From sequence record MZ189261.1: a stretch of DNA of 64,000 bases. One strand, given 5' to 3'. Below, in pieces: positions 1,807 to 7,836 of the stretch. Both the position numbers and the translations under genes were made by a program. The stretch is from Escherichia phage S143_2. The notes under the pieces are model-generated. The model was not told where the DNA came from. It saw only the letters and a list, made by a program, of their open reading frames with translations, and did no database searches. Position 1 is the stretch's first letter. Every line of letters starts with the position of its first letter.

Positions 1807-2265
1807 TTATAGGATGGTAGTGAGCACCTTATATAATGATTTGCCCATTACATATTCCCATTGAGAAGGTTTAATTAAAGCGAATGCATCAAATTCAGGA
1901 ATCTGTCGTCCGTCTGGGAATGTATGATAGGAATTACAAACACTGTTTCTGAATTGCTCGTGCTCTACAGGGATGGTATATAGGAACAGATGAATATTCT
2001 TATTGTCTGAGTAATGATGTTCACCTAGGTCTTTCAGGAAGGCAGGGTCATATTGTGTAAACCCAGTTTCTTCTTCGCATTCACGAATAGCGGCTTCGAT
2101 AGGAGATTCGCCGGGCTCGACACGACCTTTAGGAATATCCCACCGATGAGCTAAAGAACCTTTAGGACGAGAACCAGTTACACGCCCCATGAATAATTCT
2201 TTATCTTCGGTAAGGAAAATAATACCAGCTGATAGTTCTTTCACTTTATTTTTCTTACTCATCAT
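1807..2265 (-). CDS. nudE: Nudix hydrolase
   Basis: Nudix box GRVEPGESPIEAAIRECEEETGF; position immediately upstream of e as T4 e.1; start chosen at MSKKNK after AGGAA. Confidence 0.85.
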   Translation of the reverse strand: MMSKKNKVKELSAGIIFLTEDKELFMGRVTGSRPKGSLAHRWDIPKGRVEPGESPIEAAIRECEEETGFTQYDPAFLKDLGEHHYSDNKNIHLFLYTIPVEHEQFRNSVCNSYHTFPDGRQIPEFDAFALIKPSQWEYVMGKSLYKVLTTIL

Positions 2266-2753
2266 CTCAAATTCCTGCATTCGGTAATAAAACGTTCAAC
2301 TTCATTATTCTTGGCCTTTATCTTGTCTTTATGTTCTTGTAAACTACTTTTAATAAGATTAATAATGATGGCGGTGGTGCCGCCGCCAATGATGCCACCA
2401 ACAACACTTATGATAATAGATGCTAATAAGATAGCAATAATATCAACAAAACCTAAAGAACTCACCTTAGTACTGAAAAACCATATAGACGGTACAAATA
2501 TAATCCATCCTGTTATCCATTGGCACTTATTGAAAAACTTTTCAAGCTCAGCTTGAGTTGTTTGTATTACTTCATCGATAGGTTGATATCCATTAATGTA
2601 TCTGTTCACGATAATACCTGCTGGCTGGTCGATTTTAAATTCTTGGCAAATACGTTTCACTAAGTAGGATGGACAGGATGTCCAATCTACTGAATAGTAT
2701 GAAATACCTTCATTGCCATCGTCTATATTAGACCAATATGTTTTGTTAATCAT
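2262..2753 (-). CDS. small membrane protein (163 aa), two predicted TM helices, unknown function
   Basis: Hydrophobic stretches WITGWIIFVPSIWFF and FVDIIAILLASIIISVVGGIIGGG; C-terminal ERFITECR motif. Confidence 0.6.
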   Translation of the reverse strand: MINKTYWSNIDDGNEGISYYSVDWTSCPSYLVKRICQEFKIDQPAGIIVNRYINGYQPIDEVIQTTQAELEKFFNKCQWITGWIIFVPSIWFFSTKVSSLGFVDIIAILLASIIISVVGGIIGGGTTAIIINLIKSSLQEHKDKIKAKNNEVERFITECRNLR

Positions 2754-3439
2754 TACCAGCCTTCCATAGGGAATTCCAGATAAACTTGAGCATTGACACG
2801 AATTTCATTGGTAATCTTTTTAACTCGGTCTGTATTACGAGATACACGTCCGAACCAACGCCATCCATTACTAATTGCACGAGAACCAGTGTGCCATGTT
2901 TGCCAATCAAACTGAAGAAGAGTACGATCTGGAGCTTCCCATTTCTCTAGTTCACCTTTTTCAATTTTTTCGAGGACTTCTTTGTGCCACTGGCGATAGA
3001 TAAGTTCGCCATCAGGAATCTGACTGAACTCTGCAGTTCCTGTTGCAAAATGAGTAGGACACACATCAGCGTTAACAAGACCAAGAATATGTTCAGACAA
3101 ATAGCGAGGATTGTCATAATCAGGTTGTCCTGCAGTAATAAAGTGTTGACCGACTGGAATATCTGGGCGAGGAACATCATCATGGTGATATCCAGGAATA
3201 GCAGGATACCAACCGGGCATCAGCATGTGAACTCGTGAATCAAATACTACATCCGAGTCTTTCCAATCGTCAGGAAGATTTTGGATAAAGCTACGAGTAA
3301 TCGGGCCACCATTATCAAAAGCAAAATTCAAATCGCAGTTAAAGAACATAGGCTCGTTTTTAATCTGGTCGTTTTTAATCGCATGAGCAAAACCACCTAC
3401 TGCACGAGCTTGGCTATTAAACACTTTAGAACTATTCAT
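2753..3439 (-). CDS. hypothetical protein (228 aa), His/Asp-rich motif
   Basis: Long ORF with SD GAGGAAAA; motif GYHHDD...HF; no family recognised. Confidence 0.6.
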   Translation of the reverse strand: MNSSKVFNSQARAVGGFAHAIKNDQIKNEPMFFNCDLNFAFDNGGPITRSFIQNLPDDWKDSDVVFDSRVHMLMPGWYPAIPGYHHDDVPRPDIPVGQHFITAGQPDYDNPRYLSEHILGLVNADVCPTHFATGTAEFSQIPDGELIYRQWHKEVLEKIEKGELEKWEAPDRTLLQFDWQTWHTGSRAISNGWRWFGRVSRNTDRVKKITNEIRVNAQVYLEFPMEGW

Positions 3440-3440
3440 A

Positions 3441-3746
3441 TTATTTTCCTCGACATTCTTTAATGAAATTTTCTAGATTGGTAGATTCAATAGCTTTTTT
3501 ACGAGCTTCTGCGTGTTCTTCTTCAGACAATTTACATTTATAATTGACCCAGACATTATGGTCGAAACTAGTCGTGGCATATAATAACAATGCTCCAACG
3601 AATAGCAAAAACGGTGATAAGAATACGAAACCAGGAACACCATCCATATCGTAGGCCTTTTGTAATACTGCAACAGAAAGAGCTGCGTAAAAAGGTGATG
3701 CAAATATTGTTAAAAGACCGATTCGGTTGGTTTCTGTTAATTTCAT
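3441..3746 (-). CDS. small membrane protein (101 aa)
   Basis: Two hydrophobic helices; C-terminus ...LENFIKECRGK; SD GAGGAGAA; downstream of early-promoter cassette. Confidence 0.6.
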   Translation of the reverse strand: MKLTETNRIGLLTIFASPFYAALSVAVLQKAYDMDGVPGFVFLSPFLLFVGALLLYATTSFDHNVWVNYKCKLSEEEHAEARKKAIESTNLENFIKECRGK

Positions 3747-3764
3747 AATATTCTCCTCATGTTT

Positions 3765-3806
3765 TAATAGGACTACTATATCATAGTCCTATAATTGTGT
3801 AAACAG
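3765..3806 (-). promoter_or_regulatory. early-promoter-like cassette with embedded stem-loop (copy 1)
   Basis: Minus strand GTTTAC (-35) then inverted repeat ATAGGACTA/TAGTCCTAT over the -10 region; near-identical copies at 5059-5101 and 12714-12756. Confidence 0.6.
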
Positions 3807-3816
3807 TTTTGTGAAG

Positions 3817-4773
3817 TTATTTGAAAGGTTTTACCATATGGAAATTTTGTTTGAAACGTTTGACGTAATCATCATGTCCTAAGCTTTGGTACATACTTAC
3901 TACTTTGCTGTAGTTTTCCCAGGCATACTCACGGAACCAACCAGAGGTGATGCTTGTACAGACTTTTTCCAATGCCATCATAAAACTGGCTTCAGGGTTA
4001 ATTTTAAAGTCATTAGGAATTTGAGAACGTTCTAATGCTAGTACACATGATTCTTCGTATACACCGGCCAATTTGACCATTTCTGGTAACGATTCAAACT
4101 TCTCGCGTGAGGTCATGACTTCAGAACCGTCTTTCATATAAAATGTATACGCTGGACGGTCTGTTAGTGCAATGGCTTCATGAATAGTATCATGGTCATA
4201 CGTATAGATGTCATCTTTAAAGAACGCACTTTTAGAAGTGTCAAGAACTGGGTGAGCATAGTTCAAGGTTTCTTTCTGGCGTTTCAGCATAATTTCAGTA
4301 AGTTCATCGTTCAGTGTAACACCTTTACCACGAAGATACTGAATATGGTTCATAGTCTTTAAAAAGAATGGATTATTTTTCTTGAAACGATGAGACAACT
4401 TAATTGCAAGACATATCTCAGGAGTTGCCCAGTAAAACCCGTTCAAACGGTCTTTAGTCAAATTTTTCTTGGCGTATTTTAAAAGGTCATAAGAAGACGT
4501 GAAATCTTCAGGAGTGAGTTCACCTACTAATTCACGGACATTAGTGATTGCCGGAACAATATATGCTTCAAAATGAGTTTCGCGTCCATTATGGAAGCAT
4601 TTGAAAACTTGGACATCAGGGTTATCTTGATGAACATATACACCCATCATTTGATTTTTGAATGCATTCCAAGAACCTTGGTCTGCAATAAAGTCCCAGT
4701 CACTATTTTTGATAGCGTTAGAATCAATAAGACCATGATAGTGAAGTGCACGAGAACCAATAACTAACATCAT
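3817..4773 (-). CDS. hypothetical protein (318 aa), possible nucleotidyltransferase-fold N-terminus
   Basis: Strong SD GAGGAAAA; N-terminal LVIGSRA...SDWDFIA loosely fits the G[GS]...DxD NTase pattern; no family recognised. Confidence 0.6.
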   Translation of the reverse strand: MMLVIGSRALHYHGLIDSNAIKNSDWDFIADQGSWNAFKNQMMGVYVHQDNPDVQVFKCFHNGRETHFEAYIVPAITNVRELVGELTPEDFTSSYDLLKYAKKNLTKDRLNGFYWATPEICLAIKLSHRFKKNNPFFLKTMNHIQYLRGKGVTLNDELTEIMLKRQKETLNYAHPVLDTSKSAFFKDDIYTYDHDTIHEAIALTDRPAYTFYMKDGSEVMTSREKFESLPEMVKLAGVYEESCVLALERSQIPNDFKINPEASFMMALEKVCTSITSGWFREYAWENYSKVVSMYQSLGHDDYVKRFKQNFHMVKPFK

Positions 4774-4801
4774 AATATTTTCCTCGGATTAATTCATTAA
4801 C

Positions 4802-5053
4802 TTAAATTTCACGACATGCGATATCATATTCATCCCAGAGGTCATCGTGTGAAGCCTCTACCAATGGAACGATTGTACCATTTATGTCTTCATTATAAGG
4901 GCAAATTGTACAGTGCGCATCTTCGAATCGGATACCTTTGTGTTCAGATTTTTTATAACGCATATCGAATATCTTTGCAAATTTTTCACGAGTAATGGTT
5001 TTACCAACCACTTTGGTTCCGATACTTTCGTAATAAATCATTGTGGACTCCAT
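4802..5053 (-). CDS. hypothetical protein (79-83 aa)
   Basis: ORF downstream of early-promoter cassette; alternative start at 5041. Confidence 0.5.
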   Translation of the reverse strand: MESTMIYYESIGTKVVGKTITREKFAKIFDMRYKKSEHKGIRFEDAHCTICPYNEDINGTIVPLVEASHDDLWDEYDIACREI

Positions 5054-5058
5054 TTAAT

Positions 5059-5101
5059 TTGATAGGACTACTATAACATAGCCCTATCTTGTTGTAAACT
5101 G
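5059..5101 (-). promoter_or_regulatory. early-promoter-like cassette with stem-loop (copy 2)
   Basis: gataggactactataacatagccctat...gtaaac, about 85-90% identical to copies at 3765 and 12714. Confidence 0.6.
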
Positions 5102-5103
5102 TT

Positions 5104-5301
5104 TTAGCAAGAATAACTAGACGATACCCAGCCTTGAACAGTGATACTATTGTGGGATAATGAGATCGCGTCCTGGAGATTCAGACCTGCGTTATCTTCA
5201 ATCCATAACGTAACTTCTTCGCGTTCTTCTGTTGCAATTTGGAACAGGTTTTCCAGAGCAGCTACTGCCGTACGTACAGCACAATCTAATTCACGAGACA
5301 T
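5104..5301 (-). CDS. small protein, paralog family member (65 aa)
   Basis: C-terminus ...QGWVSSSYSC shared with the next two ORFs. Confidence 0.5.
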   Translation of the reverse strand: MSRELDCAVRTAVAALENLFQIATEEREEVTLWIEDNAGLNLQDAISLSHNSITVQGWVSSSYSC

Positions 5302-5310
5302 ATGGTTTCC

Positions 5311-5583
5311 TTAGCAAGTGTGAGAAGATGCGATCCAACCACCAGTTTCGAGGCTTAGGTTGTAGTCGTATTGGTAAACGTCGGCCCATTCAGCATAGCC
5401 GTTTTTTGTACAACGTTCAAGGTCGGCTTTAAGCTGTCCGGGTGAATGATATGTTCCACCCATACCATAAGCTGGATACAAGTCGAATGTTGTGTTTTGT
5501 TTATCAGCAATTTCTTTGGCAGCCTCAATAGCTGCATAGATTTTTGCTACAGCTTCAGCCAATTCGGTTTGTTCTTTAGACAT
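5311..5583 (-). CDS. small protein, paralog family member (90 aa)
   Basis: C-terminus ...GGWIASSHTC; stop overlaps TAAGGAA SD of next gene. Confidence 0.55.
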   Translation of the reverse strand: MSKEQTELAEAVAKIYAAIEAAKEIADKQNTTFDLYPAYGMGGTYHSPGQLKADLERCTKNGYAEWADVYQYDYNLSLETGGWIASSHTC

Positions 5584-5592
5584 AGTGATTCC

Positions 5593-5898
5593 TTAGCACA
5601 ACGCAGAAGACGAAACCCAAGCACCTTCAGTAATAACGTAACCGTTACCTTCACGCTTAACATCGCCACCATTATTTTCAATTTCATCTTTCATCCACTG
5701 GGATACGATTTCACCCTTAGGATAATAAGTACGACCGCTACCATAATCACCTACAGAAAATGATACGGCATATTGGTCTGCGATCTTTGTTGCTTCTTCT
5801 TCGATACGTTCAGCTTGATTCAGAAGTTTATAAATTGCGTCTGAAGCGGATTTGGCATCATTAAACTCTGGTACTTTAATTTCAATAATCTTACTCAT
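5593..5898 (-). CDS. small protein, paralog family member (101 aa)
   Basis: C-terminus ...GAWVSSSALC; ATGA overlap with upstream gene. Confidence 0.55.
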   Translation of the reverse strand: MSKIIEIKVPEFNDAKSASDAIYKLLNQAERIEEEATKIADQYAVSFSVGDYGSGRTYYPKGEIVSQWMKDEIENNGGDVKREGNGYVITEGAWVSSSALC

Positions 5899-6254
5899 TT
5901 TCTACATTCCTTAATAAAGTTTTCGATTGTTTCATTTTCACGTCTAGCTAGGAGTTCATTATAACTAATCATTTGAGAAGCGTAAACCTTTTTATTTTTC
6001 TTGTTATGGTTTATAAAGTCGTAGTAAAAATAGACTACAGTACAAAAGGATGCGATGGATGCAAAGGCTTGGGTATACCGTAAGTCCTGCCATTGGTCTG
6101 TGAATCCACCAGTGTTCCCTATAAATCCTAACACAACGCCGTCAATAAGAAATCCAACTAATCCAAAGGCAAATCCCATGCCAATACTCATAATAAAAAT
6201 TAGAATGTTCTCACCAAGAGAAGGCCATACGGTTAAGAGTTGAGGCTTTTGCAT
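5895..6254 (-). CDS. small polytopic membrane protein (119 aa)
   Basis: Multiple hydrophobic helices; C-terminus ...IENFIKECRK. Confidence 0.6.
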   Translation of the reverse strand: MQKPQLLTVWPSLGENILIFIMSIGMGFAFGLVGFLIDGVVLGFIGNTGGFTDQWQDLRYTQAFASIASFCTVVYFYYDFINHNKKNKKVYASQMISYNELLARRENETIENFIKECRK

Positions 6255-6628
6255 CTTATTTCCTTAACGAATTCCATAGCTTCTTCATATTCATACTTTT
6301 TAACAGCTTCATCATACTGAGCTTGGGCTTTTGCGCACTGAACTTTCCATTCTCTTAATCGGGCTCTGTGATGACGGCCTTGGTGCCAATATCCTGCCCA
6401 ATTAATAGGCATTAATAAAAACGGTACAATAAGTGGTGCGACGAACATTAATGAAAACGCTGCATCAGACGATATAACTTTATTGGAATCTAAAACAGCT
6501 CCTATAATCATAAAGATTAAAAACGCTAAAGCTAAAATAGGGCCAAATAGTACTTCATTTGGGATTAATTTACGCTTGTATTCATACGCCCAGGGCTTAC
6601 TTGGCATGTATAGGGTTGGCTTTGACAT
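6233..6628 (-). CDS. small membrane protein (about 131 aa)
   Basis: Start trimmed to ATG 6628 (track start was TTG); TM segments LFGPILALAFLIFMIIGAVL and AFSLMFVAPLIVPFLL; C-terminal EFVKEIRCK. Confidence 0.55.
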   Translation of the reverse strand: MSKPTLYMPSKPWAYEYKRKLIPNEVLFGPILALAFLIFMIIGAVLDSNKVISSDAAFSLMFVAPLIVPFLLMPINWAGYWHQGRHHRARLREWKVQCAKAQAQYDEAVKKYEYEEAMEFVKEIRCKSLNS

Positions 6629-7193
6629 ATTCTCTACATTCCATAATAAATTGCTCAAGGATTAAATTGTTAGTGAAATTAGGACTAACAACCATGGTTT
6701 CATAAAGCGCATCAATAGCACTTAAAGCATCAACTCTTTTAAGCAAAGGCTTGCCTTCATACATAGTTTCAGAATCGACGATTAAAGTGAAGTAGTATTT
6801 TTTATTATTGACCAGAACTTCTGTATCAATATAAAACATGTTAGACCTTAAAAGCTTGTCTCTAAAGCCTATGTAATCATCTGAACGTTCACTGATATAG
6901 TCCCATTCAGTGTTTAAACAACAAACAGACCACGTAGGAGCAACGAAATCAGTGAATCTAATATCATGGTCTGCAACTAGTTTAGCAATAGCTCCGATAT
7001 CATGAATCATAATACCTGGGGCTAATAAAGATTTTCGGTTATTTGCATATTCAGTTGTCTCATAAGAAGACGACCAGTACCATTTACGTCCAGTTGCAAC
7101 ATATCGTAATGAATCAACTAAAGACGTAGGTGGATTTACCTTATCTCGGAACTCTTCGAACATTGAGTCAATATCATTATTTTGGTTTCGCAT
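6597..7193 (-). CDS. hypothetical protein (about 198 aa)
   Basis: Start trimmed to ATG 7193 with AAGGAG SD; contains EQFIMECR near C-terminus. Confidence 0.55.
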   Translation of the reverse strand: MRNQNNDIDSMFEEFRDKVNPPTSLVDSLRYVATGRKWYWSSSYETTEYANNRKSLLAPGIMIHDIGAIAKLVADHDIRFTDFVAPTWSVCCLNTEWDYISERSDDYIGFRDKLLRSNMFYIDTEVLVNNKKYYFTLIVDSETMYEGKPLLKRVDALSAIDALYETMVVSPNFTNNLILEQFIMECREYVKANPIHAK

Positions 7194-7210: not shown

Positions 7211-7238
7211 CCAAAAGGAGGACCGGAGTCCTCCGTAT
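7211..7238 (-). terminator. intrinsic terminator-like hairpin (GGAGGAC..GTCCTCC + T-run on minus strand)
   Basis: Perfect 7-bp stem followed by TTTTGG on the minus strand. Confidence 0.5.
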
Positions 7239-7242
7239 TATT

Positions 7243-7836
7243 TTATTTCAAAGAGTTAATATATTCTTGTACATCAGCAGAAGTGGTTTCGACACCAGCT
7301 GGAGTACCATTGAACGTTTCAACACGAGTCAGAGTGTCTTCGATATCAACCTTAGTCAGTGCAGCGATTTCAATTACATCATCAGCCGTAGAGATACCAA
7401 GGGCATTAGCTGCTCGAGTTTCACGAATGTATTCGAGTTTGATTGCCAGATTCTGACGAGCATCGTCAAGTTCAACAACCTTACGAGCAATTTCAATTCG
7501 CATAGCGGCATACCCGTCAGCTTTTGTATTAAGTTGTTCGGCAGTTCGACGATACAGAAGACCAAGCTTGGCATGCATGGTAACATCTTGTCCTTCAGCC
7601 AGGAGCTTACGAATTTCACGTTCCTTAGAAGCGGCTTGCTTATTCTTTTCAATAACAAGTTCGCGAATACGTTTTTCTTCATTAATAGATTTAACAGAAG
7701 CCGTTTTTAGTTCTTTGATTTGGGTAATCAACTTATCTGCAGCTGCGTTATACTGTTCTTCGACAGTCAGATTTTTAGCCATAGCAGTACCCAGTTTAGT
7801 GCGGATGAATTCAACAAGTTTCTTCAGTGTGTTCAT
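7243..7836 (-). CDS. coiled-coil protein (about 197 aa), unknown function
   Basis: Start trimmed to ATG 7836 with AAGGTAA SD; heptad-rich helical sequence; own early promoter upstream. Confidence 0.55.

Follow-up and report, generated by a model that had tools for sequence, protein, structure and literature searches.

A recurrent peptide was found at or near the C-terminus of several proteins encoded in a stretch of 64,000 nucleotides (nt) of Escherichia phage S143_2 (MZ189261.1), hereafter called the window, whose positions serve as coordinates throughout. Between the genes e.6 and nudE on the minus strand, several proteins carry a common tail, F-[IV]-x-x-C-R, and this repeat is very likely a peptide motif under peptide-level selection and not an RNA motif. 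We consider it fairly probable that the tail is a peptide-level module placed on diverse proteins, which would act as their common docking tag, possibly for the e.6 protein. To our knowledge, none of the genes from e.2 to e.6 has a known function, though T4 is among the best-studied viruses.

The Tail in the Window and in the RB69 Genome

This region of the window is 96–98% identical to RB69-like phages (Mosigvirus, T4 type), and the gene names used here are taken from the RB69 and T4 annotations. On the minus strand, where the genes and features described below lie, the order is e.6, a hairpin, e.5, e.4, e.3, three small paralogues, ORF135c, ORF134c, ORF133c, ORF132c, e.2, nudE, and the lysozyme gene e. 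The initial annotation had listed five minus-strand open reading frames (ORFs) with a similar C-terminal peptide, and both the ORFs and the peptides were identical to those quoted; its description of them as five consecutive genes did not hold, given that only e.5, e.4, and e.3 are adjacent, with five tail-less genes between e.3 and ORF133c and with ORF132c standing between ORF133c and e.2.

The soluble protein e.5 (6597..7193, 198 amino acids) carries the tail FIMECR, written TTT ATT ATG GAA TGT AGA (6633..6650), and the 11 residues beyond its tail helix overlap the e.4 start. The e.4 protein (6233..6628) has two transmembrane (TM) helices and a start ATG at 6626-6628 (MSKPTLY...) that is backed by the T4 ortholog, and it ends in the variant tail FVKEIRC (TTC GTT AAG GAA ATA AGA TGC, 6251..6271), with the ATG of e.3 (6252-6254) spanning the Arg and Cys codons of this tail. 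In e.3 (5895..6254), a two-TM protein of 119 amino acids, the tail FIKECR is encoded by TTT ATT AAG GAA TGT AGA (5901..5918), and the AAGGAA inside it is the Shine-Dalgarno sequence of the next gene, whose ATG lies at 5896-5898. The same peptide, FIKECR, is found in the ORF133c homologue (3441..3746, a two-TM protein of 101 amino acids), encoded by TTC ATT AAA GAA TGT CGA (3450..3467), and here the Shine-Dalgarno sequence GAGGAAA begins in the Arg codon, ahead of the ORF132c ATG at 3437-3439. In the case of e.2 (2262..2753, 163 amino acids), which has a soluble domain at its N-terminus, followed by two TM helices and the tail, the peptide is FITECR (TTT ATT ACC GAA TGC AGG, 2274..2291), the Shine-Dalgarno sequence AGGAA also begins in the Arg codon, and the nudE ATG (2263-2265) forms an ATGA overlap.

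The nucleotide consensus that had been proposed for all five genes is kept in four of them, with CGA instead of AGR as the Arg codon of ORF133c, and it fails in e.4, where the variant TTCGTTAAGGAAATAAGATGC encodes FVKEIRC. The proposed overlap with Shine-Dalgarno sequences was borne out, these being located in or just downstream of the motif at all five junctions, whereas the spacing had to be corrected from 5–25 nt to 2–10 nt between the end of the Arg codon and the next ATG, apart from the e.4 junction, where that ATG lies within the tail itself.

The pattern TTYATTNNNGAATGYMGR matches the window four times without mismatch, all on the minus strand (2274-2291, 3450-3467, 5901-5918, and 6633-6650), compared with a mean of 0.16 matches in shuffles of the window, and the single further match needs a mismatch and is not C-terminal. 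At the peptide level, a regular expression run over the six frames of the 64-kb window matched in these genes exclusively, and in the complete RB69 genome, F[IV]x[EDQ]CR has four matches, all of them these tails and all at most 11 residues from the stop codon. Scored with a position matrix, the tails reach 25–33 bits, and no other site exceeds 9.8. Chance and compositional bias are ruled out by the shuffles, the RB69 genome scan, and the position-matrix gap, together with the cluster enrichment described in the following section.

Confinement of the Tail to the e.6 to nudE Cluster

For comparison, we collected the corresponding clusters of T4, WG01, VR25, PM2, and Enterobacter phage MY742, together with 34 IMG/VR loci fetched with an e.6 profile. 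The cluster interval was taken as e.6 to nudE in 36 loci from at least ten genera and was compared with the same-strand genes elsewhere in the same loci. The strict tail F[IV]xxCR occurs in 92 of 369 cluster genes versus 2 of 1079 genes elsewhere (Fisher P = 5e-56, from counts that are not phylogenetically independent), and a relaxed tail occurs in another 47 of the 369 versus 5 of the 1079. Each phage has from two to eight tail genes. The tail is present in Tequatrovirus, Mosigvirus, Dhakavirus, Gaprivervirus, Mosugukvirus, and Karamvirus-type Enterobacter phages, and also in Citrobacter phage Moon, Klebsiella phage Marfa, Escherichia phage EcS1, and Serratia CHI14-type phages.

In T4 itself (NC_000866, 2985-3461), the annotated e.2 protein of 102 amino acids is tail-less, being truncated by a -1/+1 frameshift pair, in which a 1-nt deletion in an A-run is compensated about 65 nt further on by a 1-nt insertion. 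NNFITECRKLK can still be read from the distal part, and other Tequatroviruses have an intact e.2 of 162 amino acids.

A word-indexed protein search returned only close relatives of e.2 and e.5, and searches of the tail proteins against Pfam, PHROG, NCBIfam, and PADLOC gave matches only to families of unknown function. No description of the motif was found in a literature search whose coverage was incomplete.

Anatomy of the Tail and of Its Carriers

The tail consensus consists of a hydrophobic residue (-3), E/N/D (-2), any residue, F (0), I/V (+1), two free positions, C (+4), R (+5), and K/R/E/G (+6). It was profiled on 79 non-redundant tails selected by the strict pattern, where the invariance of F, C, and R holds by construction; position -3 is L, I, V, F, or M in 76 of these 79 tails, and position +6 is mostly K, R, E, or G. 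The motif lies 0–15 residues from the C-terminus (27 in one Aeromonas gene), and relaxed members have I, S, V, M, or A instead of Cys, Lys instead of Arg, or Trp instead of Phe. The hydrophobic residues at -3, 0, +1, and +4 are spaced as i, i+3, i+4, i+7 and precede a basic end, from which we infer that the tail would form one face of a short amphipathic helix. The AlphaFold2 (AF2) model of e.5 places the tail within a predicted helix, residues 177-192, after a loop, with a predicted local distance difference test score (pLDDT) of about 80 in that part; compared with the PDB, this model had no meaningful fold match (TM-scores around 0.2).

The carriers divide about equally into proteins with two TM helices and proteins with none. 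In the two-TM carriers, Lys and Arg together number 2.9 ahead of TM1, 0.5 within the loop, and 1.2 immediately beyond TM2, which fits an in-out-in arrangement, and TM2 is succeeded by a segment of about 45 residues. According to the positive-inside rule, basic residues mark the cytoplasmic side of a membrane protein, and the tail of the membrane carriers would therefore face the cytoplasm.

With their tails removed, the carrier bodies fall into 21 BLAST clusters, or at least 20 mutually unrelated groups. Profile comparison of the tail-less bodies with hhalign produced only two links, of e.3 to the e.3-like group (87%) and of e.5 to a single e.5-like group (70%), and e.3 against e.4 scored 2%; a weak PHROG link of ORF133c to the e.2 family (E 0.0017) runs over the TM region plus the tail. 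As judged from these comparisons of sequence, the tail is a shared module on diverse bodies and not the mark of one protein family. The initial annotation had offered, as one of its two readings, a homologous C-terminal tail on mostly membrane proteins; the shared tail stands, and the rest has to be modified, given that about half of the carriers are soluble and that most bodies have no detectable relationship.

A conserved cytoplasmic helix common to diverse proteins of one cluster would serve as a docking tag, tying the soluble and membrane proteins of the cluster to one partner or to each other. We give about even chances to the proposal that the tail is such a common docking or assembly tag. 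A precedent exists in T4 itself, where the gp43, gp33, and gp55 proteins dock on the gp45 sliding clamp by means of C-terminal clamp-binding tails. In both cases, a short hydrophobic peptide recurs at the C-termini of several unrelated proteins of a single phage; the tail described here differs in its sequence and in its carriers, which are accessory and membrane proteins instead of replication and transcription factors, and its docking would be by analogy.

Five rival explanations were ranked, in descending order, as a membrane-targeting helix, an RNA element, a nascent peptide, a cassette boundary, and a relative of the capsid targeting sequence. According to the first, the tail would be a MinD/FtsA-type amphipathic helix at the C-terminus, which lies on the inner membrane face and recruits the soluble members to it without a specific protein partner. 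An amphipathic helix with a basic end at the extreme C-terminus, as predicted in e.5, would suit this role, as would the division of the carriers of one cluster into membrane proteins and soluble ones. However, membrane-targeting helices conserve amphipathicity rather than specific residues, and in the tail F, C, and R hardly vary over at least ten genera, acidic residues are common at -2 and +3, and the hydrophobic face is just four residues long. On these grounds, we regard membrane targeting as unlikely, although it is the best placed of the rivals.

Selection on the Peptide and Its Coincidence with the Next Start

The other reading of the initial annotation was that of a reused RNA element, namely an extended Shine-Dalgarno or translational-coupling signal at the gene junctions, of which the peptide would be a by-product. 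In its favor, the motif lies in or next to the initiation region at all five window junctions, as in ordinary translational coupling, where a Shine-Dalgarno sequence is embedded in the upstream gene and ATGA overlaps occur, here by making use of synonymous tail positions. The codons of the tail speak otherwise. In a set of 98 distinct proteins ending in F[IV]xxCR, the Phe codon is TTT in 67 and TTC in 31, six codons are in use at the I/V position, Cys is divided evenly between TGT (49) and TGC (49), and Arg is encoded by CGT (32), AGA (25), AGG (23), CGA (9), CGC (8), and CGG (1). While the codons of the four invariant residues are thus scrambled, the middle positions +2 and +3, which often supply the Shine-Dalgarno sequence in the window (AAG GAA), are the least conserved of the motif, with more than 20 different codons each.

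Neither spacing nor structure is kept. The distance from the end of the Arg codon to the next ATG ranges from -7 to 84 nt in the 98 tails, and the Shine-Dalgarno sequence floats, being placed after the motif in 30 cases, beginning in the Arg codon in 24, and within the motif in 24. In PM2 gene 135, the nudE Shine-Dalgarno sequence sits after the stop codon, and in the e.5-like gene of MY742, the motif lies 33 nt upstream of an ATG that has its own AAAGGAG. The five window junction RNAs, whose folding had been put forward as a check, fold no better than shuffles (z from -0.78 to +1.78) and have no common fold, and an Rfam search of the junctions gave no match at E<=1.

Moreover, the motif tracks the upstream protein and not the downstream start, this being another check that had been put forward. 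The e.2 gene retains its tail before nudE, before an ORF130c-like gene, or before another tail gene, and the nudE start occurs without an upstream motif in RB69, WG01, and VR25, where another gene precedes nudE. In Aeromonas phages avDM2 and 65, the e.5-like genes retain the motif ahead of 68–80 nt of non-coding DNA, with no coupled gene downstream, and about 270 other RB69 genes do without it; most coupled RB69 junctions likewise lack the motif, and ordinary coupling neither needs nor explains an F-I-x-x-C-R peptide. Given the scrambled codons, the varying spacing, the unstructured RNA, and the tracking of the upstream protein, conservation acts on the protein. The codon data already go most of the way to refuting an RNA or translational-coupling element as the cause of this conservation, and we find it quite improbable.

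In parallel, the coincidence with the initiation region of the next gene, which the initial annotation had also pointed out, is real, and we regard it as a secondary effect. At 109 of 135 junctions, a tail gene runs into the start that follows, versus 59 of 186 for tail-less genes of the same clusters, and counted by family, mostly overlapping stop/start junctions are found in 24 of 29 tail families versus 4 of 18 tail-less families (Fisher P = 6e-5). The Arg codon is AGR in 26 of 39 tails with the next ATG 4–12 nt away and CGN in 26 of 37 with the ATG far or absent (P = 0.0015), and AGG makes up 23% of the Arg codons in tails versus 5% in the whole RB69 genome. This overlap excess, the AGG enrichment, and the preference for AGR near a start can be counted on the side of an RNA element; they would also be expected in tightly packed genes, where purine-rich tail codons (K, E, R) and a Lys/Arg end may ease the embedding of a Shine-Dalgarno sequence and of an A-ATG-A overlap, and where the downstream start would then select among the free and synonymous positions of the tail. 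For subunits produced in a fixed ratio, tight coupling would likewise be fitting. If this is correct, the tail is a clean case of dual coding, in which the amino acids are set by the protein and the choice of synonymous codons by the ribosome-binding site downstream, and it cautions against taking junction repeats for RNA signals.

A further candidate, the use of the out-of-frame ATG in GAATGY as an alternative start, was rejected, since it needs codons ending in A, which are found in about 60% of the tails, and since in e.3 a stop codon follows at once.

Selection at the peptide level would also be expected of a nascent peptide that, from within the exit tunnel near termination, slows release and promotes re-initiation at the overlapping start, and the position of the motif close to the stop codon and its strong tie to overlapping junctions agree with such a role. 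Yet, the motif stands anywhere from 0 to 15 residues ahead of the stop (27 in the Aeromonas gene mentioned above) and is kept where nothing is coupled downstream; short of an exhaustive search, the tail is also not known to resemble any arrest peptide. We see little chance for this explanation.

An equally small chance is given to a cassette boundary, arising from tandem duplication or gene shuffling in a hyperplastic region and spreading with the junction while having little function of its own. Consistent with it, the e.3/e.4-type genes share an N-terminal MxKPS(K/L)P whose coding sequence overlaps the preceding tail, the gene content of the cluster differs between genera, and an insertion or deletion of ORF130c between the window and RB69 is flanked by GAGATGA. 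Against it, four residues are kept despite complete synonymous turnover across at least ten genera and into the Aeromonas phages, and homologous recombination would need a longer and less divergent stretch of shared DNA. The raw counts also suggest a dN/dS ratio well under 1 in the codons of the tail. The promoter/stem-loop cassettes (PeSL) described in the hyperplastic regions of T4-like phages are intergenic DNA elements conserved at the nucleotide level (PMC4122927). The tail resembles them as a recurrent motif at gene boundaries of variable T4-like regions, and PeSL-like sites are present in this cluster (3775-3803 and 5070-5098); it differs from them in lying inside the coding sequence and in being conserved only as a peptide.

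The last rival is a relationship to the T4 capsid targeting sequence MKTYQEFIAE, which is N-terminal, is cleaved after its Glu by the gp21 protease, and targets internal proteins to the prohead. A tail of this kind would direct processing or prohead association, and the likeness of FIKE/FIAE to EFIAE and the internal-protein genes of the same region, which are diverse and fast-evolving and also have in common a short peptide with an F-I core, speak for it; we dropped it as having a negligible chance, given that the tail is C-terminal with a conserved C-R end, that its Glu position is E in 30 of the 79 non-redundant tails and otherwise Q, M, D, Y, G, or S, while all but a few internal-protein N-termini of the loci keep their Glu, and that half of the carriers are integral membrane proteins.

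The PspA-Like Neighbor e.6 as a Candidate Partner

The gene e.6 (7243..7836), annotated as “conserved hypothetical”, is the conserved upstream neighbor of the tail-bearing genes, from which it is separated in the window by an interval with a terminator-like hairpin (7217..7234). Its AF2 model (pLDDT 75.5) predicts a helix at residues 2-19 and a long hairpin at 25-80 and 86-145, that is, the N-terminal helix plus hairpin by which the ESCRT-III type is recognized, and the top Foldseek matches of the model are Vipp1, PspA, and CdvB2, with a probability of 1.00. The family is a small one, with only 45 representatives found among 1.84 billion proteins in an exhaustive HMMER search with the e.6 profile. 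The e.6 protein of the window has no match to Pfam PF04012 (PspA_IM30), but two distant members of its family, which match the e.6 profile at E 3e-17 and 1e-19, exceed the gathering threshold of 33.9 bits with scores of 39.0 and 35.1 across the whole hairpin, and one of these two lies on a phage-like contig. In hhalign, a wide e.6 alignment ran in register with E. coli PspA over residues 1-59 (E 3e-4, probability 39%), and a narrow e.6 alignment gave nothing. From the sequence relatives and the predicted fold, e.6 is very probably a divergent PspA/IM30 homologue of the ESCRT-III superfamily; a literature search of incomplete coverage found no description of e.6 as PspA-like.

The gene following e.6 carries the strict tail in 35 of 36 loci, and in the exception (L014), a disrupted e.5 is found, whose fragment still ends in the tail. 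In four more distant phages, the gene after e.6 has the strict tail in Aeromonas phages 65 and avDM2 and variants in the other two, namely FIHSCK in Enterobacter phage Nando and FVNYCI/FVDYCV in Aeromonas phage CC2. Every locus was reached via e.6 or a neighboring gene, and these co-occurrence counts carry that selection. A likeness of the tail to the N-terminal helix of e.6 itself (KLVEFIRTK) was considered and rejected, given that the position matrix did not detect it.

Bacterial PspA-family proteins work with small inner-membrane partners that are encoded alongside them, as in the case of PspB/PspC or LiaI (PMC11237479), and this review of the Psp system does not mention viruses. Because PspA-family proteins pair with such adjacently encoded partners, e.6 suggests itself as the best candidate for the docking partner of the tails, being nearly always followed by a tail-bearing gene in an arrangement that recalls PspA with PspB/PspC and LiaH with LiaI; we hold this pairing to be tentative and distinctly less probable than docking as such. 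As in those two systems, e.6 adjoins several small inner-membrane proteins whose C-termini are predicted to be helical and cytoplasmic. Unlike them, the phage cluster has the tail on soluble proteins also, and e.6 lies below the Pfam threshold; moreover, e.2, e.3, e.4, and ORF133c have no match in Pfam or NCBIfam, and no sequence similarity to PspB, PspC, or LiaI was found.

It is conceivable, if rather doubtful, that T4-like phages carry their own Psp-like membrane-maintenance module, composed of e.6 and of variable small inner-membrane and soluble proteins that would be recruited to e.6, or would recruit e.6 to the membrane, via a docking helix of the form hydrophobic-x-x-F-[IV]-x-x-C-R. In that case, the block of “hypothetical” genes of T4 from e.2 to e.6 would become one testable system at the host inner membrane, with a bearing on how the phage keeps the membrane energized and perhaps on the timing of lysis.

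Several observations weigh against the docking proposal and against e.6 as the partner. The association of tails with overlapping junctions (24/29 versus 4/18 families) leaves room for a translational role, and the tail counts across related phages, as already stated, are not phylogenetically independent. The e.4-type paralogues with I, S, V, or M instead of Cys indicate that this residue is dispensable. The AF2 model of e.5 has only moderate confidence (overall pLDDT 62). In the case of e.6, the link is one of conserved adjacency only, in loci that were themselves fetched via e.6 or its neighbor, and in one distant metagenomic phage, a PspA-like gene adjoins a gene that is without a clear tail.

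Other Features of the Cluster

Two nudE starts probably need correction. The mechanical ORF of nudE in the window (1807-2280) begins at the ATG inside the e.2 motif (GAATGC), and the true start is likely the ATGATG at 2265/2262 that overlaps the e.2 stop, as in the RB69 annotation. In the same way, the annotated T4 nudE start (MQEIKM...) is the out-of-frame ATG in the relic e.2 tail, and the real T4 start is probably the second ATG.

At the same junction, ORF130c of RB69 is missing from the window (window 2260-2268 versus RB69 1956-2192), and the endpoints of the deletion fall in the short repeat GAGATGA, which is found at the e.2 stop and at the ORF130c stop. A whole gene has been gained or lost here by microhomology, precisely at gene junctions.

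The ORF132c homologue (2753-3439) is unusually conserved by the standards of this region, since phages of Dhakavirus, Gaprivervirus, and Pectobacterium, and even Aeromonas phage CC2, match it at about 75–78% nt identity. The C-terminus of its product, NEIR[VR]NAQVYLEFPMEGW, is nearly invariant, with one substitution in CC2, and it matched no family of known function. The tail-less ORF134c homologue (3817-4773, 318 amino acids) contains Pfam DUF7277 (E 1e-27) and DUF7275 (E 1e-78) and is present in most clusters. The early-type promoters at 3775-3803 and 5070-5098 consist of TTTACA, a 17-nt spacer, and TATAGT, with the -10 region lying within a hairpin (TAGGACTA...TAGTCCTA).

Lastly, the three tandem small acidic paralogues (5593-5898, 5311-5583, and 5104-5301) have a second C-terminal motif, W-[VI]-[SA]-S-S-x-x-C-stop. 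This paralogue family, one member of which belongs to PHROG 899, amounts to 74 genes across the loci and is not present in T4 itself. The first of the three, a single intact ORF of 101 amino acids in the window (5593-5898), corresponds to two short ORFs in RB69, ORF138c and ORF139c, and this split suggests that the RB69 record contains a frameshift or a sequencing error.

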